From a bacterium (GTDB taxonomy: Bacteria > Patescibacteriota > Patescibacteriia > Patescibacteriales > UBA12465), in assembly GCA_035400585.1 (NCBI GenBank), contig DAOMZR010000001.1, positions 370,643 through 434,642 on the forward strand: a stretch of DNA of 64,000 nt, read 5' to 3'. The translations under genes and the position numbers were made by a program. The notes under the pieces were generated by a model, which was given only the letters and a program-made list of their open reading frames with translations, had not been told where the DNA came from and ran no database searches. Every line of letters starts with the position of its first letter. The first letter of the stretch is position 1. Below, one piece after another: positions 515 to 28,258 of this stretch.

Positions 515-1687
515 TTAATCGTTTCCAGAGAACAATATTCCTTTTCCGGACCAAAGCGTAAATTTATTTTTACCTCGCTGGTCGACTCCGATTTCTCCTA
601 AGTACAGACGATTTTGATTCACGGCTTGTATATGTCGATACAAGAAATGAACTTTGCCCACCGGTAGTGAAAAAGCGGTGTATCTTTGGGAAGGATTTAA
701 AGTTCTTTGGAGTTTGGGTTTGAATTTCAGAGAATTGCCCTTAGTTAAATCACTAAGACCAGATCCCCAGAAAAACTCAACGCCATTTTGATAATTAGTC
801 CTTAAAAAAACTGGCTTAGTTCCCTTGGTAGTAAAGCTGTAGTTAACAGCAATAACTCCAAGTAAATCATTCGGAATAACTGGTGAAATTTCACCATTTT
901 CATCCACTGAAACCTTGATTTGTTTTCTGGTTCCATCCTGATTCCAGATTTCAGTCCATCCACCAAAGTCAGAGATATAGACCTCAAAATTGGCAAAATA
1001 GGTACCTACTTCTGGTTTTTGCAAAGATAACAACTCCTTCTCTTTAGTGCTTGAAGCCATAATGTTTTCTGAATTTTCATCTCCAGGAATTAAAAATTTA
1101 TTCCCTTCGAATTCAATAAACATTGGATAAGCAACTTTGCTTTTCATTGTTATCTTAGAAAAATCAGCCAAACCCAGAACGGTGTCATTAATAACAAATT
1201 CTAGGTTGTGTCCCGGACCAGTTGTGTTGGTTATTCCGGTCATTCCTGGTAAATCTCCGCTAACAATTACCGATAAACCATCGGGGGTTACAACTTTAAA
1301 AGAAATCGCCTTTACAGAATAAATTGTTGTTTCTTTTCCACTCTTTTTATCGCGCGTAAAAGTTATAACCGAACAAGGAACCTTTATTTCCTTAACATTT
1401 TGGTCAAACTCATAGCCGGAAGAGGTAACAACGGGAACAGCCCACATTTTACTTTGAAGCAAGGCCCCGGTTTCTGCTTTATTCAAAGAATAAATTTTGA
1501 AATTTTTTAGCCTCGATTCGTTTTTGATTGTTACAAAATTGTAAGCCTTACCAGAAAGTCTTTCGTTGTCAAACCTGGTGGCTTTAATGGTCTGCTCATT
1601 TTTTATCGGTTTTTGCTGAGCAAAAATTTCTCGTGTTGCAGAAAAAATCATCACAACACCCATAAGTAAATAAACAAATCTTTTCAT
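515..1687 (-). CDS. secreted hypothetical protein (N-terminal signal peptide)
   Basis: This is a 390-aa ORF with an ATG start. The N-terminus MKRFVYLLMGVVMIFSATREIFAQQ looks like a Sec signal peptide. I recognise no family. It has its own consensus promoter. Confidence 0.75.
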   Translation of the reverse strand: MKRFVYLLMGVVMIFSATREIFAQQKPIKNEQTIKATRFDNERLSGKAYNFVTIKNESRLKNFKIYSLNKAETGALLQSKMWAVPVVTSSGYEFDQNVKEIKVPCSVITFTRDKKSGKETTIYSVKAISFKVVTPDGLSVIVSGDLPGMTGITNTTGPGHNLEFVINDTVLGLADFSKITMKSKVAYPMFIEFEGNKFLIPGDENSENIMASSTKEKELLSLQKPEVGTYFANFEVYISDFGGWTEIWNQDGTRKQIKVSVDENGEISPVIPNDLLGVIAVNYSFTTKGTKPVFLRTNYQNGVEFFWGSGLSDLTKGNSLKFKPKLQRTLNPSQRYTAFSLPVGKVHFLYRHIQAVNQNRLYLGEIGVDQRGKNKFTLWSGKGILFSGND

Positions 1688-2406: not shown

Positions 2407-2900
2407 GGATTGTGACTCAACCCCCTCAACCGACGCATCTCAGTAAAAACACTATCTTTTACTTCTAACATACCATGACCGATCCACTCTATAACACTGT
2501 CATATCTTTCGGACATTTCTTTGTTCTTCTTAACCTCACTATCCAATCTTTTTTCCAATTTTGTTAACTTTGATTGTAAATCATTAATTTTTAATTGAGC
2601 ATTTTTGTCAGATTCATTGGACTCAAAATGTTTGGAATTTTTTAATAAAGAAGAATCTTGAGGTAAAATAGAAGTAACTGGCAACACTGAAGCATAATTT
2701 TTATCAGCAACAAAACCAGTTTTATTCTCCCTTGGCTCCGAAGAGTTAATTTTTTGTGTTTTATCGAGATGATCTTTGTAATTTTCTAGGTCATAAGACA
2801 TTACAACCTCATCATTCATTTTAATCAATTCTTTTGCCGAAAATACGGACAAAACAATTAAAACCAAAATTAGCGCAATTAAGCCGGTTTTTGTTTTCAT
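2403..2900 (-). CDS. membrane-anchored coiled-coil hypothetical protein
   Basis: This is a 165-aa ORF with an N-terminal TM/signal segment (MKTKTGLIALILVLIVLSVFSA) and a coiled-coil-like C-terminal half. Confidence 0.65.
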   Translation of the reverse strand: MKTKTGLIALILVLIVLSVFSAKELIKMNDEVVMSYDLENYKDHLDKTQKINSSEPRENKTGFVADKNYASVLPVTSILPQDSSLLKNSKHFESNESDKNAQLKINDLQSKLTKLEKRLDSEVKKNKEMSERYDSVIEWIGHGMLEVKDSVFTEMRRLRGLSHNP

Positions 2901-2936
2901 GTTTTATTATTTTAATGTACATTATTTTAACCCCGA

Positions 2937-2965
2937 ATTATATCATAAAAAAATATATTTGTCAA
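2937..2965 (-). promoter_or_regulatory. consensus promoter TTGACA-17-TATAAT (divergent pair, minus member)
   Basis: On the minus strand, TTGACA lies at 2965-2960 and TATAAT at 2942-2937. Confidence 0.7.
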
Positions 2966-2985
2966 TACGGAGTTAAAAGCACGTA

Positions 2986-3014
2986 TTGACAAAATATTTT
3001 AAATATGATACAAT
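2986..3014 (+). promoter_or_regulatory. promoter TTGACA-17-TACAAT (divergent pair, plus member)
   Basis: TTGACA lies at 2986-2991, the spacer is 17 nt, and TACAAT lies at 3009-3014. Confidence 0.7.
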
Positions 3015-3049
3015 CAAGGGTTGTATTTAGTTCATTAAAAAGCCAAATG

Positions 3050-3108
3050 CTAAATTAAAAAATTTTCTAGGAAGCAATTTTTGTTTTCTGAAAAATTTTT
3101 TAATTTAG
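3050..3108 (+). promoter_or_regulatory. long 5'-UTR hairpin upstream of CDS 3134
   Basis: CTAAATTAAAAAATTTTC (3050-3067) pairs with GAAAAATTTTTTAATTTAG (3090-3108). That gives 18 bp with one bulged A and a 22-nt loop. The hairpin lies between the promoter at 2986 and the ATG at 3134. Confidence 0.55.
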
Positions 3109-3133
3109 TATAAACCAAAAAAACAAAACAATA

Positions 3134-3682
3134 ATGGAAGCGAAAATTCTGGACTACATCTACGATGAAAACAAAGAATTGATTGGAGTAAATCTTGATC
3201 AGATCGGTGAACTAAAAATTAGTCACTGGGAAGAAAAGGTTATCGGCTCGTTTGCCAGGGTGGAATTTAAAATTCCAGCTAAAGACGGCGTATTCACCAA
3301 ATTTATTCCTGAAAGACTTCGTCTTTATAAAAATGGTGAAATACAAAGCATGCTCCCCTATTGGCGACACGGGGTTTTCGTTAAATCAACAAAAGGAGAA
3401 GATGTTCTGGTGACCAGATGCTATTATCATGTTGATTCTAAAAAAACAGAAAACAGCCTGCCCTTCGGAAAAACAGTTATTGGAACTGTTGAAATTCGAA
3501 AAGCGACCAACGCCAAAACCGGAGAAGAAAAAATAATTTTAAATTTTATTTACTCTGGTGAAACCAAAAAAATTGAGAAAAAAAGGAAAATTGTTATTGA
3601 CAGCGGCTCCGACAAGGAACCAATATTCAAAACAAAAATTCCCGGAAGTGGAGGAAAAATGATTAAAGTATTCAACGTTTAA
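3134..3682 (+). CDS. hypothetical protein
   Basis: This is a 182-aa ORF with an ATG start, a consensus promoter and a structured leader. No motif is recognised. Confidence 0.7.
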   Translation: MEAKILDYIYDENKELIGVNLDQIGELKISHWEEKVIGSFARVEFKIPAKDGVFTKFIPERLRLYKNGEIQSMLPYWRHGVFVKSTKGEDVLVTRCYYHVDSKKTENSLPFGKTVIGTVEIRKATNAKTGEEKIILNFIYSGETKKIEKKRKIVIDSGSDKEPIFKTKIPGSGGKMIKVFNV

Positions 3683-3754
3683 TTCTCCCCTCAAAAAAAC
3701 AAAAGCGCAAGAAAAAAATCTTGCGCTTATTTTTTTATATTTATTTTGCTAAAA

Positions 3755-5149
3755 TTAATAACCAATATTTTTAATAAAATAATCCTTTAAATCACTGATT
3801 TTAATTCTTTCCTGTTCCATTGAATCTCGATGTCTTAAGGTAACATCATTATTTTCCAGACTATCAAAATCGACTGTTAAACAATAAGGCGTTCCTATTT
3901 CATCTTGACGGCGATAACGCTTACCGATATTACCATTGTCGTCAAATTCACACTTCCAATTAATTTTTAATACATCAAAAACTTCTTTGGCTTTAGAAAC
4001 TAATTCTGGTTTATTTTTTAACAAAGGAAAAACAGCAATTTTAACTGGGGCTAATTTAGAAGAAATTTTTAAAACAATTCTAGAATTATCTCCCTCACCC
4101 TCTTCACAATAAGCATCAGATAAAATAGCCAAAAAAGTTCTACCAACACCAGCCGACGTTTCAATTATATGAGGAGTAAAACGAGAGTTGTCGCTTGGAT
4201 CTAAATAAGTTAGATCTTTACCAGAGTGTTTGCTGTGTTGAGTCAAATCATAATCTCCTCGAGCATGTATTCCTTCTAGCTCTTTAAAACCAAAAGGAAA
4301 GTTATACTCAATATCATAAGCTTCTTTAGCATAAAAAACCAAATTTTCATGTTTGTGCCATTTTAAATTATTCTCCTTAATCCCTAAACTCAAATAAAAA
4401 TTCCAACGAACATCCTTCCATTCATTATAATATTTCTGATAATCTTCTGGCCTAATAAAATATTGCATTTCCATTTGCTCAAACTCTCTAGTTCTAAAAA
4501 TAAACTGTCTGGCAGTTATCTCATTTCTAAAAGCCTTACCAATTTGAGCAACTCCAAAAGGAACTTTAACTCTAGTTGAGTCTAAAACATTTTTATAATT
4601 AACATAAATTCCCTGGCAAGTTTCTCCTCTTAAATAAGTTGGTTCCTTAGACCAATCTCCGGTAAAATTTCCCAGATTAGATTGAACTAATAAATTAAAT
4701 TTTTTGCCTGGCGTAAAATCTTTAGCTCCGCAATTCGGACATTTTATTTTATCTTTATTTTGGCTAAAAATTTCATTAATTTCCTCTTCGCTCATTTTTT
4801 CATCAGCAAAAATTCCAGCCTCTTCCAATAAAGAATCTAGTCTTAGACGAGAATGACACTTGCGACATTCAGTTAAGGGATCAGAAAAACCTTTGACATG
4901 ACCAGAGGCTTCCCATATTTTGGGATTCATAAAAATAGCTGAATCGAGACCAACAACATCGTTGCGATACTGAGTCATAGCTTTCCACCAAGCGTTTTTG
5001 ATATTATTAGCCAATTCTACTCCGTAAGGACCGTAATCGTAAACGGCCGGAAAACCATTATAAATTTCCGAGGATTGAAAAACAAAACCCCGTCTTTTAC
5101 ACAAAGAAACTATTTTTTCCATTTTACTTTCTTGGTTGCCACTGCTCAT
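3755..5149 (-). CDS. glyQS: glycine--tRNA ligase (class II, single-chain GlyQS type)
   Basis: This 464-aa product begins MEKIVSLCKRRGFVFQSSEIYNG, which is typical of dimeric GlyRS. Class II core motifs are present. The start may instead be the internal MEKIV. Confidence 0.9.
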   Translation of the reverse strand: MSSGNQESKMEKIVSLCKRRGFVFQSSEIYNGFPAVYDYGPYGVELANNIKNAWWKAMTQYRNDVVGLDSAIFMNPKIWEASGHVKGFSDPLTECRKCHSRLRLDSLLEEAGIFADEKMSEEEINEIFSQNKDKIKCPNCGAKDFTPGKKFNLLVQSNLGNFTGDWSKEPTYLRGETCQGIYVNYKNVLDSTRVKVPFGVAQIGKAFRNEITARQFIFRTREFEQMEMQYFIRPEDYQKYYNEWKDVRWNFYLSLGIKENNLKWHKHENLVFYAKEAYDIEYNFPFGFKELEGIHARGDYDLTQHSKHSGKDLTYLDPSDNSRFTPHIIETSAGVGRTFLAILSDAYCEEGEGDNSRIVLKISSKLAPVKIAVFPLLKNKPELVSKAKEVFDVLKINWKCEFDDNGNIGKRYRRQDEIGTPYCLTVDFDSLENNDVTLRHRDSMEQERIKISDLKDYFIKNIGY

Positions 5150-5169
5150 ATTTTTAAATATATTTAAAT

Positions 5170-6852
5170 TTAAATTTCTTCAATATTAGTTTTAATACCC
5201 AACAAAGAAAAAGCGTTTTTCATTAAAACAATGCAAGATTTAATTAACACCACTCTGGCTCGCATGACAGCCTCTTCTGCCTGTAAAATATTAACTTTTT
5301 GATAATAATCATTAAATATTTTTACAAAAGAAAACAAATATTTTGCCACCTCACTAGGATCATTATCTTTTCCAGCTTTAATAATAATATCCCCATATTT
5401 GGAAATTTCCAAACAAATTATTTTTTCAATTTCATCTTTTAAGCTATCAGCTACAGAATTGAAATCGATTTGAGACGGAATTTGAAAATTTGATTTTCTA
5501 ACAATACTTTTCATTCTAACTAGACTGTATAAAATATAAAGAGCTCCAAACCCATCAAACTTCAAAGCATTCTCTATGTCAAAGGTTATCACTTTATTTG
5601 GAGAAACTTTAAGCATTTCAAATTTTAAAATAGCCACGGCTAGTTTTTGAGAATTTTCTTCTATTTTATCATCACTCCAATCTTGGTGTCTCTCTTTGGT
5701 TTCTGATACTAATTTATTGAAAATCTGATTATAAAGATCTTTTAATAGAACAATTTTACCTGAACGAGAAGACATCATTCCGTCTGGCAACTTAACAAAA
5801 TCATAGGCTAGATGAGTAAAGTCATTTTTATAACCGGCTAATTCTAAAATTTTAAATAATTGTTTAAAATGCAAACTTTGCCTTACATCAACTACGATAA
5901 AAGATTTTTTTAAATTAGAAAAATCGGAATTCTTTTTTTCAGCTAAAGCTAAATCAGCCACGGCATACAAAGCGGTACCATCACTTCTAACCACCGGCAA
6001 AACACCCAAATTATATTTCTCTAAATCAGCAATAATTGCTCCTTGACTTTTTTTAAAAATTTCTTTTTTTAAAAAATTATCTACTATTTCAACCCCTCTT
6101 TCGGTAAAATCGCTTTCAAAATAAGTTTTATCAAATTTTATATCCAAGAGAGAATAAATATCATCAAATTCTTTTAAGCTTAATTTTCTGGTTTCTTTCC
6201 ATAATTGATAATTGTCTCCCTTTTTGCCTTCAATATCTATCATTATTTTACTAATTTCTTCAGAAATTTCTGGTTTTTTTTCTATCTCAGAAACAGACCA
6301 AGAATAACACTCTCCTATGTTTTGGCTATGCCCCATTTTATAAGCCCAAACGGTTTTGGCCGTATTTATGCCAAGATCATTAATGAAAGAAACAGGATGA
6401 GCATCAAAACCATTAGCTTTAAAAATTTTAACCAAAGAATCACCCAAAACAATATTTCTTAAATGGCCAATATGTATTTCTTTGTGGGTGTTAGCATTAG
6501 AATATTCAAAAATAACCCTATCTTGCCCACCAATATTATTATAAAAAAGATTTTTTTGATTATCCAAAGTGATTTTAATTGTTTCAGCTATTAAATATTT
6601 TTTGTTTATAAAAAAATTAAGATATGGACCAGCTATATCTACTTTTTCAACAATTAAGTTTAATTCCGGTTCGGACAAAATTTTATCTTTAATTTTCAAA
6701 GATAAAACTTTTAAATCTTCTTTGGATTTTTTAGCCAAAGAAAAAAGAGGCAAAGATAAGTCGCCCAAATCATTGCTCGGCGGATAAACAAAGATATTTT
6801 GTTCAATATCCAAATTTTTAGCTATTTTTTCTTTAATATGGTCTAAAATCAT
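5170..6852 (-). CDS. argS: arginine--tRNA ligase
   Basis: This is a 560-aa product with the class I HIGH motif (HIGHLRN). The length and layout match ArgRS. Confidence 0.9.
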   Translation of the reverse strand: MILDHIKEKIAKNLDIEQNIFVYPPSNDLGDLSLPLFSLAKKSKEDLKVLSLKIKDKILSEPELNLIVEKVDIAGPYLNFFINKKYLIAETIKITLDNQKNLFYNNIGGQDRVIFEYSNANTHKEIHIGHLRNIVLGDSLVKIFKANGFDAHPVSFINDLGINTAKTVWAYKMGHSQNIGECYSWSVSEIEKKPEISEEISKIMIDIEGKKGDNYQLWKETRKLSLKEFDDIYSLLDIKFDKTYFESDFTERGVEIVDNFLKKEIFKKSQGAIIADLEKYNLGVLPVVRSDGTALYAVADLALAEKKNSDFSNLKKSFIVVDVRQSLHFKQLFKILELAGYKNDFTHLAYDFVKLPDGMMSSRSGKIVLLKDLYNQIFNKLVSETKERHQDWSDDKIEENSQKLAVAILKFEMLKVSPNKVITFDIENALKFDGFGALYILYSLVRMKSIVRKSNFQIPSQIDFNSVADSLKDEIEKIICLEISKYGDIIIKAGKDNDPSEVAKYLFSFVKIFNDYYQKVNILQAEEAVMRARVVLIKSCIVLMKNAFSLLGIKTNIEEI

Positions 6853-16211: not shown

Positions 16212-17246
16212 TTATAAAATAGAATAAAATAAACGGATAAAACCTAAGATTATTTTATCAAAAATATTGATTTTTTTGTTTTTTACTGGAAAATCACAAG
16301 AATTTTCTTTCCATTTTTCTATAATTAACAACAAATCATTAACTAATTTTTTGTTATTAGAAAAAATACCCGATTCAACATTCATTCTAAAAGACATAAT
16401 ATCTAAATTTTGAGACCCAATTAAAACATCTTGATCATCAATCAACAGCACCTTGGAATGATTCATTTCTTTTTGGGCATAAAATTTAATATTTGAATTT
16501 CTAATTTGATAAATATGGGCATAGTTAACCCTATCTAAAAATTTTAAATCTGTTTTTAGAGGAACAATAATTTCAACCAAAACTCCGCGAGAAGCGGCGT
16601 TATCCAACAAGGCAATGAGCCAACGAGGAGGAACAAAATAAGGGGTTACTATTTTTATACTTTTTTGAGCTGATATTATTTTATCTTGATAGTAAGTCTC
16701 CAGAGCATAAACATTATGACTAGGAAGATTTTCCAAAAATTGGGCTTTCAAATTTTCAAGTATTGAGTGTTTTCTTTTTTCTAAAATATGATTTTTCTTA
16801 CCACCACTCATCATATAAGAATAAGAAAAAGATCTTAGAATATTTTTTATTAAAATTTTTCCACTAACTCTCATTTGCAGATCAACCCAATCAATACTTT
16901 TTCCGTGAAAATTAACACCTCCAATAAAAGCAGTCGAATCATCTATTATTAATATTTTTCTATGAGTTCTTCTCAGCCATTTACTAAAAAATAAAACTTC
17001 GACTCCATTATCTCTTAAAAATTTAATATCAGAACTTTTAAACTCCGAACTTCCGAAAGCATCCAAAACCAAAATAATCTCCAAACCCTCTCTTGCTTTA
17101 TCAGCTAATATTTTCAAAAAATCATATTCTTGAATTTTATTATCAAGAATATACATTTCCATATAAATATATTTTTTAGCTTTTAAAATGGAACTGATCA
17201 TTCCCTTCCAGGCCTGTTTAGATGTTGTATATAATTTATATTTCAT
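16212..17246 (-). CDS. phospholipase D / cardiolipin synthase-like protein (two canonical HKD motifs)
   Basis: The motifs HRKILIIDD and HSKVLLIDD are both present. The track start at 17306 is a TTG codon, so I prefer the ATG at 17246 (MKYKLYTT...). Confidence 0.8.
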   Translation of the reverse strand: MKYKLYTTSKQAWKGMISSILKAKKYIYMEMYILDNKIQEYDFLKILADKAREGLEIILVLDAFGSSEFKSSDIKFLRDNGVEVLFFSKWLRRTHRKILIIDDSTAFIGGVNFHGKSIDWVDLQMRVSGKILIKNILRSFSYSYMMSGGKKNHILEKRKHSILENLKAQFLENLPSHNVYALETYYQDKIISAQKSIKIVTPYFVPPRWLIALLDNAASRGVLVEIIVPLKTDLKFLDRVNYAHIYQIRNSNIKFYAQKEMNHSKVLLIDDQDVLIGSQNLDIMSFRMNVESGIFSNNKKLVNDLLLIIEKWKENSCDFPVKNKKINIFDKIILGFIRLFYSIL

Positions 17247-17333
17247 AGAAAATAGCTCAAAAAAAATTATAACATATTTTTTTAAAAGCTTAAAGCCCTC
17301 TGACAAAATACGGAAATAATAAAATTTTCTTAT

Positions 17334-17502: not shown

Positions 17503-19063
<1,561 letters not shown>

Positions 19064-19212
19064 AAATATTTAGAATTTTGATTGCTCAAAATATAATGTT
19101 ATCATTACCTAATTTTATAGAAAACTATAAAATATTGGATTTATTGAATTGATGCCTGTTAGCATCAAAATCTCACCAAACAAAAAATATAAAAGAACGT
19201 TTTGCAAATTAA

Positions 19213-19241
19213 ATTATAGACACTATCAGAAATAATGTCAA
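19213..19241 (-). promoter_or_regulatory. consensus promoter TTGACA-17-TATAAT in the 5S-16S spacer, directed at 16S
   Basis: On the minus strand, TTGACA lies at 19241-19236, the spacer is 17 nt, and TATAAT lies at 19218-19213. A GTTCTTTT (boxA-like) element follows at 19198-19191. Confidence 0.7.
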
Positions 19242-19260
19242 CTAAATTAAATTGCATAAT

Positions 19261-19374
<114 letters not shown>

Positions 19375-19426
19375 ATTATGCAATCTAATAAGATTACATA
19401 AATGTAATTAACTTAAAATTAGAAAA

Positions 19427-22441
<3,015 letters not shown>

Positions 22442-24040: not shown

Positions 24041-25706
24041 ATTTTTTATAATAACTTAAAATTTGATTATCGTTTTTAGAAAAAACAATTATGCTTGTTT
24101 TATTTAATTCATCGCTGATTAAGCGCAACATTTTATTAATGGGTTCATAGTTTAGATCCAGCCATAAATTATCAATAACTATAACATCCGGCTTAACAAT
24201 TAAACAATGAGCACAATGAGCCGCAAAAGATTTTACAAAATTATTAAAAACAAATTCTAATTTTATATTATAGTTAGCATCCTGGCTTAAATTTTGAGCT
24301 ATCAGATCAAATTTTTGAATCTTTTTTATATTTTTTTCAACTTCCTCCATCGAAATCATCTCCTTGTCTTTTCCCGAAACAAATTCCAATAAAGTTCGCA
24401 CAGATTTAAATAGTGGATCAAAATAATAGGGACGAGGCCGACAACCAGACCAAAAAGAATAATTGAATTTCTGACCATCAATTTTTACTTTCCAGCTCAG
24501 AGGATTGCAAACCTTTAAACCAGAAAAAGCTAAGGCTAAAGATGTTTTTCCGGATAAATTTTCACCTGTAAATAAATATCTATTTCCGCTTTTAAAAACA
24601 AAAGACAAGCGACGATAGTACGCACCTTCTAAAAACAATTTCGTCTTTCTATTGTGAAAGCTTATTTCGTTTCTAACTATTGGCGCCATTTTTGTTAACG
24701 AAATTCTTTTTGGCAAAACTGATAGCACTATTCCTAGTTTAGCTGGGTAAGTATAAAGACCAATAGTTGAAGCCTCATAAAGAGCTCGGGAAATATAGAT
24801 AATAAAAAATATAAGAAATAGATAGTTGAAATTATGTTTAGCAAAATAAGAATTCAAAAATCCTTCATTAAAATTTACAAAAAAATAAATAATTATTACT
24901 AATAAAAAAATAAACTTTCCAGCCAAACGAAACCACAAATCGCGACGAATTCTGAAATAAGAATCAAAATCTACCAAGCGATCAAATTTTTTAATAAAAT
25001 AACCCTCTTGAAAAAATCTTTTTAAAAAAGATTTATCAGAAAAATTGAAACTGATATGTTTTAATATTTGAGAATAAAAAGTAACCTCTCTGGATATATA
25101 ATATCTGGAAATAAAATAAGAAAACAAAATTATAATCAAAGAAAGTACCACAAAAAATAAAGAAGACCACAATAAACTTAAATCAATCAAATGGGCAATA
25201 AAAACAAAACAGGCAAAATAAAAAAACCAACGGATAACTGCAAAAAAAACTTTAGTAACAAAAGAGGAAAGCAGGGGCAAATGATAAGATATTTTGGCTA
25301 TTAAATTAGATTGAGACTCTCCGTTTATAGAAGCCTCCCCTCTGTTTAAATAAAAAGAAACTATTCTTTTTCTAACCTCGTTGCTAAGATAAACTGATAA
25401 AGTTTTTTCCTTTTTTATTGAAAAATATGAAAACAATAGAAAAAGAACGGAAAAAACAATAAACAACAACAAGAGGCTATTATTCGTTGTTTCAAAATTT
25501 AATTTATTGCGACTAATTAATAGCAACAACAACTCTACAATTGTCTGACAAACAATTAGGGTTAAAGCCAAAAAAAATAAAACCCTATTTTTTTTATAAA
25601 ATTTTTTAAAAAAAGAAATGTAAAAACCCAAACCTCTTTCTTGATCAATCGGCAAGGCATTGTTTCTTATTTTTTTTAATTCTGAAATATTTTTATTTTC
25701 GATCAT
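24003..25706 (-). CDS. ABC half-transporter-like protein (multi-TM N-domain plus degenerate nucleotide-binding domain), second gene of the RT cassette
   Basis: In this 567-aa product, roughly the first 330 aa hold about 6 hydrophobic helices. The C-terminal domain has Walker A GENLSGKT (24543-24566). The signature position reads LSQDA instead of LSGGQ. The Walker B position reads VIVIDN (24168-24185), with Asn where the catalytic Glu normally sits. The gene overlaps the RT stop by 14 nt. Confidence 0.75.
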   Translation of the reverse strand: MIENKNISELKKIRNNALPIDQERGLGFYISFFKKFYKKNRVLFFLALTLIVCQTIVELLLLLISRNKLNFETTNNSLLLLFIVFSVLFLLFSYFSIKKEKTLSVYLSNEVRKRIVSFYLNRGEASINGESQSNLIAKISYHLPLLSSFVTKVFFAVIRWFFYFACFVFIAHLIDLSLLWSSLFFVVLSLIIILFSYFISRYYISREVTFYSQILKHISFNFSDKSFLKRFFQEGYFIKKFDRLVDFDSYFRIRRDLWFRLAGKFIFLLVIIIYFFVNFNEGFLNSYFAKHNFNYLFLIFFIIYISRALYEASTIGLYTYPAKLGIVLSVLPKRISLTKMAPIVRNEISFHNRKTKLFLEGAYYRRLSFVFKSGNRYLFTGENLSGKTSLALAFSGLKVCNPLSWKVKIDGQKFNYSFWSGCRPRPYYFDPLFKSVRTLLEFVSGKDKEMISMEEVEKNIKKIQKFDLIAQNLSQDANYNIKLEFVFNNFVKSFAAHCAHCLIVKPDVIVIDNLWLDLNYEPINKMLRLISDELNKTSIIVFSKNDNQILSYYKKYEIQSKEIREKK

Positions 25707-26904
25707 AATGAAATTTTAAGTAAAATTTATACAAGGAAATTATTTTGATCTGGCTTTCGGATAATTTATCAACAAGCAATCTTCTATTTCTGGAATTATA
25801 TTTGCCAAACAAAAATTCAGTTAGAACTTTAAAAAACGATTCGGACAAAAGTTTTATTTGATCAGAGTCATTTATTTGTGGTTTGCTTTTTATAATACCT
25901 TTAAAAACATTATTAAAATTTTTTTGAGGATTCTTCATTATTTTTCTCAAAATAGTCATCTTATAATTTTGACTATAATTTTTGTAAATCAAAATCGATT
26001 GCCAACTTTTTATTATTTTTTTGACAAAATTATCTGGCAAGGATATTTTACCCGCCAAAAAATTATAACCTAAATAAGAAAATTTTTCTTTAGCTTGACC
26101 GAAAAATATTTTATCTAAATTTATTTTGAGTTTCAAATTCGAAACATCATTTAAAAATTCTTCTTTATTTTTTTCTAATTTTTCCTTGTCTGGATCAAGC
26201 ATTATCAAATCATCACCTACTCGTAAATAAAATTGGGCACGAGAAGAAAATTTCTTATCGATATCGTTTAAATAAAAATTGGTTAAAAGACCAAAAATCG
26301 GACAACCAATGACTAGCCCCCTATTTGGTTTTAAAAATTCACCTTGATAGTAAAAACTATTATTAACAAAAACAGATAATAATTTTAAAACGGAATCATC
26401 TTTAATAAATTCTGACAACTTCTCCATCATTAATGTCCGATCGATTTCACCAGAAAAATTACTTAAATCAGCCGTAAAGACATAATCGGTATTGAAAAAT
26501 TTACGATATCTTTTGGCCATTAAATAAGCTGCGTTATAAGGTGATTTTCCTGGACGATAAGAAAAAAGGCGAGACGAAAACTCTTTTTCAAATTCGCCCA
26601 AAAGAACTCGATAAATTGCCTGGGATTTAACTCTCTCCTTAATATTGTAAATAAATATCTCTCTATTTTTTTCTGGATTATGTTTTTTAGGAATATAAAT
26701 ATTAAGGGCCGGATCAATTTCTTTAAATTCTCTCATTTCTTTTTTAATTTGCCTAATTAAATTAAAAACAAACAAATTAAAAAAATTTAAATTTAAACCG
26801 TCCAAGCCCCTGTACCTATTTTCTTTGTTTTCCAAATGAAAATAATCAAAAACCTCTTGATAGGCTTCCCTAATATTCTTAGAAGATGTTATTTTTTTAA
26901 ACAT
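25693..26904 (-). CDS. reverse transcriptase (unclassified; not obviously retron, DGR or group II)
   Basis: RT motifs occur in the expected order: IYIPKKHNPEKNREIFIYNIKERVKSQAIYRVL (motif 1), SYRPGKSPYNAA (2), YVFTADLSNFSGEID (3/A), GLVIGCPIFGLLTNFYLNDID (4/B), YLRVGDDLIML (5/C; VGDD is encoded at 26220-26209), LKLKINLDK (6) and FSYLGYNF (7). A C-terminal region of about 110 aa follows. The track start at 26913 is a TTG codon, so I use the ATG at 26904. Confidence 0.85.
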   Translation of the reverse strand: MFKKITSSKNIREAYQEVFDYFHLENKENRYRGLDGLNLNFFNLFVFNLIRQIKKEMREFKEIDPALNIYIPKKHNPEKNREIFIYNIKERVKSQAIYRVLLGEFEKEFSSRLFSYRPGKSPYNAAYLMAKRYRKFFNTDYVFTADLSNFSGEIDRTLMMEKLSEFIKDDSVLKLLSVFVNNSFYYQGEFLKPNRGLVIGCPIFGLLTNFYLNDIDKKFSSRAQFYLRVGDDLIMLDPDKEKLEKNKEEFLNDVSNLKLKINLDKIFFGQAKEKFSYLGYNFLAGKISLPDNFVKKIIKSWQSILIYKNYSQNYKMTILRKIMKNPQKNFNNVFKGIIKSKPQINDSDQIKLLSESFFKVLTEFLFGKYNSRNRRLLVDKLSESQIKIISLYKFYLKFHYDRK

Positions 26905-26916
26905 TTTAAACAAAAA

Positions 26917-27306
26917 ACTGCTCTTAAGATTTTTAACAGTTATATCTGTTAAAAATTAATAATATAATATTCATTGAGAAGTGGCGGATGAGACCCAGTG
27001 ATGGCAGGGTAGCGGTAAAAACCAGCTCTAAATTATCTTGGCATTATCAAGAATGGAAAAAAACAGGCTGATTTTAATGCCCTTTTTAAAAAAGGTTTTA
27101 AGAGCAGTCAACAAATGTAAAGGTAGCAGAAAAAATCGTTTCAGGATCTTCGACGGATTACCATCAAAGATTATTTAAGTATTTCATTGAGAAGTAGTGT
27201 AAAAGCGAAATTTAAGGAGTGATCCTTAATTACCGATAAAATTTTTGTATCTCTTATCGATTTTGATACCCATAACAATGGTTTTGAAACGATTTTAAAC
27301 TGCTAC
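26917..27306 (-). ncRNA. candidate RT-associated structured noncoding RNA / long structured leader
   Basis: No ORF of 60 aa or more lies in 26905-27391. G+C is locally elevated (28/50 in 26981-27030 by my count). Two long-range helices and several local hairpins are present. A minus-strand promoter sits immediately upstream of the outer helix. See the findings for coordinates. Confidence 0.55.
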
Positions 27307-27310
27307 TTAA

Positions 27311-27338
27311 ATTATATACCAAATGAACAAAAAGTCAA
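27311..27338 (-). promoter_or_regulatory. promoter TTGACT-16-TATAAT for the ncRNA/RT cassette
   Basis: On the minus strand, TTGACT lies at 27338-27333, the spacer is 16 nt, and TATAAT lies at 27316-27311. The predicted TSS is about 27304-27306. Confidence 0.6.
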
Positions 27339-27391
27339 AAAAATAATAATTATTTTAACTAAATTTTATAACACAAAATTATAATGGATAT

Positions 27392-28258
27392 ATGAAAAAA
27401 AATAAAAAAATAATTTTCTGGCTATTTTTTTTGTTAATAATTTTTATTGTTTTTTTGAATTATTATTTAAAAATTAGAAATAATAAAAATTTAAATATTT
27501 TCTTTCTGGATTCAGGCCAGGCTGATACAATATTAATAAAAACACCAGAAGAACAAAATATTATTATTGATTTAGGCAGTAAAGATGGACTTAAAGGTGT
27601 TGGTCAGCAAATTTTTTGGTGGGACAGAAAAATAGACATATTAATAATAACCCATCCTCACGATGATCATATCTTGGCCATTCCTCAATTAATAGATAAA
27701 TATAAAATAAATAAAATAATATTTACTGGGATAATATACGATTCACCAATCTATGAAGAAATAATTAAAAAAGCGCAAGATAAAAAAATAAAATTATTAA
27801 TTCCGCAAATCAATCAAAAAATATTATTGGGAAAGAGTTGCGAGTTGGATTTTTTATATCCATTAGAAAGTTTAAAAGATAAAAAAATAGAAAATATTAA
27901 CAATTCTTCCATTGTTAATAGATTGAAATATAAAAACAATTATTTTTTATTCATGGGTGATTCTGAAATTGACATTGAAGAAAAATTATTAGAAAAAAAT
28001 TATGAATTAAAAAGTGATGTTTTAAAAGTTAGCCACCATGGCTCCATTAGTTCTAGTCATCAAGAATTTATAAAAAAAATAAACCCGAAAATTTCAATCA
28101 TCATGGTTGGTCAAAATAATAAATTCAACCATCCAAGTTTAAGAACATTAAATAAATTACAAAAAATCGGCTCTTTGATTTTTAGAACCGATTTAAACGG
28201 AGATATAAATATAACAAGTGATGGTCAATTGATAAAATATAAACTATCCAGCGAATAA
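27392..28258 (+). CDS. ComEC/Rec2-type MBL-fold domain protein with N-terminal TM anchor
   Basis: This is a 288-aa product. The motifs FLDSGQADTILI, ITHPHDDH, LKVSHHGS and FNHPS...RTDLNGDI match the C-terminal metallo-beta-lactamase domain of ComEC. Confidence 0.8.
   Translation: MKKNKKIIFWLFFLLIIFIVFLNYYLKIRNNKNLNIFFLDSGQADTILIKTPEEQNIIIDLGSKDGLKGVGQQIFWWDRKIDILIITHPHDDHILAIPQLIDKYKINKIIFTGIIYDSPIYEEIIKKAQDKKIKLLIPQINQKILLGKSCELDFLYPLESLKDKKIENINNSSIVNRLKYKNNYFLFMGDSEIDIEEKLLEKNYELKSDVLKVSHHGSISSSHQEFIKKINPKISIIMVGQNNKFNHPSLRTLNKLQKIGSLIFRTDLNGDINITSDGQLIKYKLSSE

Follow-up and report, generated by a model that had tools for sequence, protein, structure and literature searches.

A 13-nt direct repeat in the leader of a Patescibacteria reverse transcriptase operon probably reflects a conserved element in two copies of a structured RNA module

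Why does the leader of a reverse transcriptase (RT) gene carry the same 13 nucleotides twice? The question is raised by a 64,000-nt stretch of a Patescibacteria chromosome (contig DAOMZR010000001.1, positions 370,643 to 434,642; hereafter the window), in which the intergenic leader of an RT gene on the minus strand (478 nt, 26914-27391, 28% GC) contains two perfect copies of TTCATTGAGAAGT, written here for the plus strand, at a start-to-start distance of 213 nt. An earlier sequence-only reading had reported this repeat, flanks that differ between its copies (GGCGGATG versus AGTGTAAA), and a plus-strand TATAAT at 26963-26968 preceding the first copy, and all of these were found exactly as described. 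The 64-kb window holds no further copy of TTCATTGAGAAGT with up to 1 mismatch. The explanation that we consider probable is that the two 13-mers are two copies of one conserved RNA element, each within one unit of a duplicated RT-leader module.

The minus-strand leader folds with a free energy of -105.7 kcal/mol (z = -7.45) into two domains, each with its own long closing helix, and each 13-mer is either unpaired or part of a mini-hairpin, one per separately closed domain. This fold supports the earlier proposal of a structured, RT-associated minus-strand RNA with one 13-mer in each of its two domains, here called module A (promoter-proximal) and module B (RT-proximal) (Table 1). A covariance model of the RNA family matches module A at 27299-27127 with 83.3 bits (E = 1e-16) and module B with 88.6 bits (E = 6e-18), and a 12/12 inverted repeat (I11) further supports the closing helix of module A. 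Module B sits where other species have their one module, and its 3' arm stops 2-3 nt ahead of the RT open reading frame (ORF). A promoter scan placed a site with 11 of 12 matches upstream of module A, the best in the region and the only strong one, with the predicted transcription start at the 5' edge of the module. Since the sole strong promoter lies upstream of module A and no terminator was found within the window leader, A, B, and the RT are expected to share one transcript, so that a single leader would bear two tandem, anciently duplicated modules of ~180 nt. A second TTGACT (27106-27111, minus strand) lies in the 5' arm of the closing helix of module B with no good -10 element after it, and may be a relic of a promoter copied with the duplication.

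This module appears to accompany its RT family throughout the Patescibacteria. The covariance model detected it in 49 of 60 sources, always upstream of the RT and, except in one locus (L006), directly so; it gave no significant match elsewhere in 717 kb. RT homologs are almost exclusively from Patescibacteria (Falkowbacteria, Magasanikbacteria, Paceibacteria, and Peregrinibacteria). Each module consists of the long closing helix P1, a small hairpin P2, a long-range helix, variable hairpins, a signature block, an AU-rich linker, and a terminal hairpin P6. In nearly all loci P1 covaries and spans 9-31 bp, and its 3' arm ends 0-3 nt ahead of the RT start; the P1 sequences vary between loci while their complementarity stays. 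A conserved AAAAC(C) comes directly after the 5' arm. In the covariance-model alignment, 90.3% of cells are paired, compared with 38-44% when partners are slid, compensatory changes occur in 28 of 30 pairs, and the covariation score is 0.535 versus 0.08-0.14 in the slid controls. RNAalifold, applied to a MAFFT alignment of 29 modules, recovered P1, the long-range helix, P6, and a 2-bp stem around the core of the 13-mer. The long-range helix covaries from GAUAUUA/UAAUAUC to GAUGCCG/CGGCAUU and is predicted to form a pseudoknot, as single-sequence folds place its 3' strand in a hairpin's apical loop. Rfam 15 gave no match at E <= 1 in the window leader (26000-28000) or at E <= 5 in the leader of L010, and no family at gathering score for the leader RNA in 10 loci.

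The 13-mer is the signature mini-hairpin of this module, since its stem covaries, its loop is conserved, and the block is among the four most conserved of the RNA. Read as RNA it has the parts ACU-UC-UCAAU-GA-A with a stem of 2-3 bp; in copy 1 the stem is UC/GA (optionally UUC/GAA) around the pentaloop UCAAU. In ~45 of 52 modules a C-UC(A/G)(A/U)UG-type signature lies at -55 to -73 nt relative to the 3' end of the module, directly 3' of a stable, often GC-rich hairpin, and copy 1 lies 66 nt from the 3' end of module A, as in other modules. For each stem column, the strongest mutual-information partner is the column it pairs with (0.85 and 0.93), and the loop reads U-C-R-W-U with three positions nearly invariant; mutual information gave no long-range partner for the pentaloop beyond the mini-stem. 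L074, which is syntenic with the window, has 67% RT identity, and carries one module, has AAGUCUCAAUGAU at the same position and shares 9 nt of the 13-mer. The plus-strand TATAAT had been offered as a possible start of an antisense or second transcript. The promoter scan found no -35 partner for it, and its RNA-sense counterpart belongs to the AU-rich linker present after the signature of every module, so this suggestion was dropped.

Across 164 structurally aligned columns, modules A and B share 54% identity; their helices are entirely different in sequence yet intact, and the 13-nt run is the longest identical stretch between them. The divergence between A and B is as great as that separating them from modules of other species (49-54% identity), and comparisons made to ask which of the two is the ortholog of the single module of relatives all saturate in this same range. 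Since this divergence equals that to other species and both copies score more than 83 bits, the pattern indicates an old tandem duplication with both copies maintained. The helices drifted in sequence through compensatory changes, while the 13-mer belongs to one of the four blocks of the RNA under the tightest constraint, which would explain why it stayed identical.

Is the repeated pair itself conserved? The earlier reading had named its absence from orthologous cassettes that keep the RNA as a refutation, and there the pair is indeed missing: most orthologs have one module, with no second copy of the motif, and only five loci (the window, L019, L021, L041, and L057) have two. The closest orthologs (L001-L004 and L072-L074, 64-70% RT identity) have a TTGACT-N17-TATAnT promoter followed by one domain only, and L074, which shares with the window the order T2SSE, Lactamase_B, leader, and RT, has a leader shorter by ~195 nt, the length of one module. 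In the four other duplicated loci the copies are 61-81% identical, and tandem duplication has arisen independently in several loci. Gain or loss of units is ongoing, since L027, a close relative of L019, has a single module. The signature hairpin is identical between copies in L041 and L057. In L019 the two signatures are CU-UCGCU-AG and UA-UCUGU-UA (5 of 13 positions identical) and in L021 they are UC-UCAUU-GA and CC-UCAGU-GG (7 of 13), with the hairpin form kept in both, so that identity between the copies is not required. One further locus, L048, has a 22-nt perfect direct repeat, CTGCACAGCTCCGTATTTCTAC, with its copies 33 nt apart at ~5853-5907 (leader -148 to -94), which is an internal micro-duplication in the variable hairpin region of a single unit. 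At the level of strains, 10 contigs with identical RT differ by 0-2 single-nucleotide polymorphisms in the leader and none within the 13-mers, which is uninformative, and a metagenome scan for closer relatives returned only the contig of L003.

How improbable the repeat is depends on the null. Against random sequence of like composition the 13-mer repeat is real and moderately unlikely, as a direct repeat of at least 13 nt arises in 2.7% of first-order Markov simulations of the leader and two matches occurred in 1 of 100 whole-window shuffles. The fitting null is paralogous modules of one RNA family rather than random sequence, and an identical run of at least 13 nt is found in 16% of 401 inter-genome module pairs (48-60% identity), always inside a conserved block. 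Once the two domains are seen as paralogs within one RNA family, the repeat is non-random yet ordinary, and the 16% figure suggests that no force specific to the pair is needed for the identity of A and B. The earlier statement that the repeat is unlikely by chance thus stands against random sequence and fails against related modules.

Several points weigh against this account. A model of independence between the copies gives the 13-nt run a probability of 1-2%, and an additional force specific to the pair, such as gene conversion, may have acted. The alignment derived from the covariance model leans toward the structure of that model; the independent MAFFT/RNAalifold analysis gave the same helices. 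The model missed 11 sources, mostly distant loci with long modules plus two truncated ones, and most of these show the same closing-helix architecture by eye. The role of the hairpin as a landmark, taken up below, is suggested by conservation, position, and analogy.

Table 1. Positions of the leader, module, and gene features in the window, of the modules in the other loci with two units, and the forms of the signature
Feature	Position	Strand	Details
Sigma-70-like promoter of leader and operon	27311..27338	-	TTGACT 27338-27333, 16-nt spacer, TATAAT 27316-27311
RNA module A (promoter-proximal extra copy)	27125..27313	-	Fold; covariance-model match
Module A P1	27296-27285 / 27143-27132	-	Extension AGCAG 27304-27300 / CUGCU 27129-27125
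Module A hairpins	P2 27281-27270; P5 27227-27214; P6 27171-27146	-	
Module A predicted pseudoknot strands	27270-27265, 27251-27247	-	GGUAUC, GAUAC
13-mer copy 1	27183..27195	-	RNA ACUUCUCAAUGAA; signature mini-hairpin of module A
RNA module B (RT-proximal)	26910..27113	-	Fold, inverted repeats I3 and I8, covariance-model match
Module B P1	27109-27098 / 26927-26916	-	
Module B hairpins	P2 27095-27081; P5 27009-26994; P6 26955-26930	-	
Module B predicted pseudoknot strands	27081-27075, 27046-27040	-	GGCAUUA, UAAUGCC; second in apical loop of hairpin 27052-27036
13-mer copy 2	26970..26982	-	Signature mini-hairpin of module B; 62 nt from module 3' end
Reverse transcriptase	25693..26913	-	406 aa from TTG start; 403 aa from ATG at 26904; Pfam RVT_1 1e-16
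ABC-exporter-type half-transporter-like protein, 567 aa	24003..25706	-	PDB profile, Pfam, hydropathy, motifs
PLD-family protein, 404 aa	22826..24040	-	Two PLDc_2 domains; NucT-like 1e-20, DrmC-like
L019 modules	5523-5702 / 5826-5998		80% identity between copies; close relative L027 has one
L021 modules	5626-5802 / 5812-5997		
L041 modules	928-1183 / 1234-1502		
L057 modules	5406-5658 / 5716-5985		
Signature, family consensus			CC-UCAUU-GG, then AUUUAAU
Signature, long-module clade			GAC-UCAUU-GUC
Signature, L001-L003			GA-UCAUU-UC
Signature, L004			UA-UCAAU-UA
Signature, L074			GUC-UCAAU-GAU
Signature, window, both copies			UUC-UCAAU-GAA

The RT encoded downstream of the modules is group-II-intron-like by its profile matches. 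Its best structural matches in a profile search of the PDB are the GsI-IIC RT (1e-32) and Cas6-RT-Cas1 (1e-28), with weaker matches to DRT2 (7e-13, the matches to DRT2 structures covering the palm/thumb region), a DRT9-type RT (2e-11), G2L4 (3e-10), and the retron Ec86 RT (2e-5); the NCBIfam group II RT/maturase model scores it 9e-36, which is under the cut-off of that model. In a motif alignment its motif C is RVGDD (residues 231-235) where GsI-IIC has RYADD, and across 24 diverse RT homologs R231, G233, D234, and D235 are invariant and the V nearly so. One RT homolog, P0005, has a weak Pfam match to Bunya_RdRp.

Two further genes follow in the operon, the RT ORF overlapping the next ORF, and the trio of RT, ATP-binding cassette (ABC) protein, and phospholipase D (PLD)-family protein is kept in 58 of 58 genome loci retrieved, with the PLD gene present in all complete loci. 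The 567-aa protein matches PCAT1, MsbA, and ABCB1 at ~1e-12 in the PDB profile search across both the transmembrane domain and the nucleotide-binding domain, which rules out a soluble ATPase of the SMC/Septu type. Of 18 orthologs, 9 match Pfam ABC_membrane and 12 match ABC_tran. The 567-aa protein has at least 5 transmembrane or hydrophobic segments followed by a nucleotide-binding domain with the Walker A motif GENLSGKT and the Walker B motif VIVIDN, in which DN replaces DE so that the catalytic Glu is missing; no LSGGQ-like signature was apparent on reading its sequence. PADLOC holds no model for this protein, and an ABC-exporter-type protein is an unusual partner of an RT. The PLD-family protein matches the HKD motif exactly once, at residue 163, and has an N-terminal transmembrane anchor (residues 19-37). 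Since the N-terminus of this anchor is positively charged, the PLD domain may sit outside the cell.

What might the module do for this RT? It is probably the RNA partner of the enzyme. The most likely role of the signature, by analogy with other RT-associated RNAs, is that of a landmark that the RT or its partners read in each unit, as a binding site or as a start or stop mark for complementary DNA (cDNA) synthesis, which would use the adjacent variable hairpin as its template. Each of modules A and B would then be used on its own, without jumps from one to the other, as in UG27. This keeps one part of the earlier suggestion of paired protein-recognition sites, as each module carries its own conserved signature, while a matched pair is not required. 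A broader and tentative proposal, which we hold to be possible and no better than that, is that the leader RNA, the RVGDD RT, and the ABC-like and PLD proteins form an undescribed, Patescibacteria-wide system derived from a retroelement, in which each RNA unit would act as an independent template and scaffold, the UCRWU hairpin would set the start or stop of a short cDNA, and the product would act at the membrane. In such a system the cDNA product or ribonucleoprotein would control the ABC/PLD pair or be exported by it, and the number of units (1-2) would be tunable in evolution via tandem duplication.

Whatever the role of its units, the repeat is by itself unremarkable, and its significance is that it flags a strongly covarying, pseudoknotted ~180-nt RNA family dedicated to a group-II-like RT. 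Neither Rfam 15 nor the literature searched contains this family, no paper found by full-text search describes the operon or its RNA, and both appear to be undescribed. A new mode of cDNA synthesis has come to light with each of the partnerships between RTs and noncoding RNAs (retrons, DRT2/9/10, and UG27). Here the RT is of a different lineage (G2L-type, with no known RNA partner) and has an altered active site, the membrane partners are not seen in other RT systems, and the hosts are little-studied, ultra-small Patescibacteria. With a covariance model, a defined signature hairpin, and natural variants with one and two units, the system is directly testable.

The strongest of the other explanations is that the module is a cis-regulatory leader controlling RT translation, with the signature as the site of a regulator, possibly the RT itself. 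In most loci the 3' arm of P1 (UUGGGGRUGAU...) ends 0-3 nt before the RT start, and a Shine-Dalgarno (SD)-like GGRG purine tract in this arm pairs with CCYC of the 5' arm, which suggests that the folded RNA masks the ribosome-binding site of the RT. Examples of the SD-like tract, in the last ~20 nt before the RT start, are at 5981-6000 in L005 and 26916-26927 in the window. Group II RTs bind the stem-loop DIVa, which overlaps their own ribosome-binding site, and binding of LtrA to DIVa of its group II intron represses LtrA translation; the group-II-intron-like character of the RT and the overlap of the P1 3' arm with the SD-like tract recall this autoregulation. Module A, however, retains all structural elements although no ORF adjoins it and its 3' arm lacks an SD-like tract, and a 180-nt pseudoknotted RNA with four conserved blocks exceeds what SD masking needs. 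Neither does the arrangement in L006 fit, where the module (3818-3990) is followed by its own intrinsic terminator (GCGGTTTTTATTAAAAGCCGC plus a T-run) and lies 2 kb and two genes from the RT; the terminator and the two intervening genes imply that this module must act in trans. We therefore regard regulation in cis as unlikely to be the explanation of the repeat, while it is compatible with, and does not exclude, a conserved element in duplicated modules. The two genes between module and RT in L006 are type IV pilin-like (N_methyl; 4079-5074 and 5102-6001), and a third lies upstream of the module (2803-3807).

The sequence-only reading had also offered a different idea, in which the repeat serves template jumping or re-priming. 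The RT would copy the 200 nt between the repeats and the cDNA end would re-anneal at the other 13-mer, with an outcome either like that of DRT2 (rolling-circle or concatemeric cDNA) or like the A-B-A' scheme of DRT10 on a larger scale. In favor of this idea, an RT-associated RNA carries the 13-mer twice without a mismatch, the period of 213 nt is divisible by 3, and A-A' homology does drive repeat addition in DRT10 (PMC12632851). But most orthologs have a single module, the signatures of L019 and L021 differ while their hairpin form is kept, and the 213-nt unit, read as a circle, contains 3-7 stops in every one of its six frames, which together rule out a DRT2-like or homology-guided jump as the mechanism of the family; the stops also exclude a Neo-like ORF. 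The motif is moreover a covarying hairpin rather than a plain tract of homology. In DRT10, A is 2-4 nt and B segments of only ~10 nt or less are tolerated (PMC12632851), a scale that the 13/200/13 arrangement does not fit. A-B-A'-like patterns do follow the signature in some modules (UCAAU-GGAAAUAA-UCAAU in L012, L013, and L020; UCAUU-UCAUU in L001), and are expected by chance in AU-rich sequence. Jumping between the two 13-mers is on this evidence very improbable.

Two remaining explanations can be set aside as having next to no chance of being right. A coincidence in AT-rich noncoding DNA (28% GC) is not vanishingly rare for a scan over many regions, given the Markov result above, but it is refuted by conservation of the motif in modules from other genomes, including the 9 nt shared by L074, and by the location of both copies at the same structural position of homologous modules. 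A feature of the DNA itself, either a target-site duplication around a ~200-bp insert or a pair of direct-repeat operators, would agree with exact repeats that have sharp boundaries, but the intervening 200 nt are the 3' third of A and the 5' two-thirds of B rather than a discrete element, terminal inverted repeats were not found, and the compensatory stem changes across genomes point to RNA pairing and not to a DNA-binding site.

Of the known systems, UG27 offers the closest parallel for tandem units, having arrays of ~150-nt pseudoknotted, sequence-diverse, and structurally conserved units beside the RT, each with a basal helix and with motifs common to every unit that mark the start and end of a short per-unit cDNA, and with units gained and lost between related loci (doi 10.64898/2026.09.22.753630). 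The window array similarly has two units that are 54% identical with all helices conserved and a shared signature, and loci differ in having 1 or 2 units. In contrast to UG27, the RT is group-II-intron-like (PADLOC scores of 7e-16 for UG27 versus 1e-34 for UG26 and 4e-39 for the generic RT model), the partners are ABC-exporter-like and PLD proteins instead of sORF/bORF, the host is chromosomal Patescibacteria while UG27 resides in prophages, only 1-2 units are present, and the motif is a UCRWU pentaloop instead of AUC...UANAG / UUYA.

With DRT2, DRT9, and DRT10 the operon shares a structured noncoding RNA directly upstream of the RT, and in DRT9 and DRT10 a conserved single-stranded template region lies just 3' of a stable stem-loop (PMC12632851, PMC9226505), as the signature here also follows a stable, often GC-rich hairpin. 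The RT differs in not being of the UG2, UG28, or UG17 type. The UG2 model is absent among its 19 PADLOC matches and the UG17 model scores it 1e-26, which is not the best match; there is also no stop-free concatemer frame. No SLATT protein, the DRT10 partner, is among the neighbors, which are ABC-like and PLD.

Retrons resemble the operon in two respects: a long terminal helix (like a1/a2) closes the RNA immediately upstream of the RT, and three genes include NTPase-like and nuclease-like proteins, as retron type I-A combines RT, ATPase, and HNH (PMC11974896). The RTs of Ec86 and Kva2, however, match at only 2e-5 to 4e-5 compared with 1e-32 for the group II RT, the P1 5' arm is followed by AAAAC(C) rather than by a conserved G, there is no single long msd hairpin, and the ATPase is of the membrane ABC-exporter type and not SMC/PtuA-like. 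Group II and G2L RTs are the closest protein relatives. Rfam matched no group II intron, either at gathering score across the window or at E <= 1 within 26000-28000, the overlap of the RT ORF with the next gene leaves no room for DV/DVI, and the active site is RVGDD instead of YADD/YIDD. G2L RTs are free-standing and lack intron RNA, and the RT fits an uncharacterised free-standing lineage of this G2L type (PMC8632793), with the difference that no G2L RT has been reported to have a dedicated, covarying RNA of ~180 nt.

Diversity-generating retroelements (DGRs) are recognized by a pair of template and variable repeats (~100+ bp, with adenine-specific differences) together with a DGR-type RT. 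This candidate was rejected, as modules A and B, at 54% identity, differ at bases of every kind and show compensatory changes in their helices. The structure 8ub7, which we take to be a DGR RT, scores the RT 1e-11 compared with 1e-32 for group II RTs. By these comparisons, the system is not a retron, a group II intron, DRT2, DRT9, DRT10, UG27, or a DGR.

The surroundings of the operon vary between loci. The 127 flanking ORFs match 148 Pfam families (T2SSE 4, N_methyl 3), and no defense-gene family is among the 25 most frequent of those listed. An association with pili or competence was considered, with T2SSE and Lactamase_B next to the operons of the window and L074 and pilins in L006, and found not to be general. 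A phage origin was likewise rejected, with 1 match among 2.9 million viral contigs. In the window, rRNA genes lie downstream of the PLD gene on the same strand (17504-22439, minus) in the order 23S (22439-19427), 5S (19374-19260), and 16S (19064-17504), unlike the canonical 16S-23S-5S, and beyond them is a second PLD-family gene (16212-17306, minus; 364 aa, PLDc_2 2e-39). The 23S gene follows the PLD gene in L001-L004 as well and not in more distant loci, so adjacency to rRNA is restricted to the closest clade and was discarded as a general feature. A tRNA gene lies upstream of the module in L019 (5417-5500, ~20 nt before the distal module) and in L010 (4842-4912, ~900 nt), which might reflect insertion beside tRNA genes. 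In several loci of the long-module clade, very large ORFs of ~1260-1890 aa stand directly upstream of the module (L036 20-5689, L043 68-5698, and L057 1557-5348).

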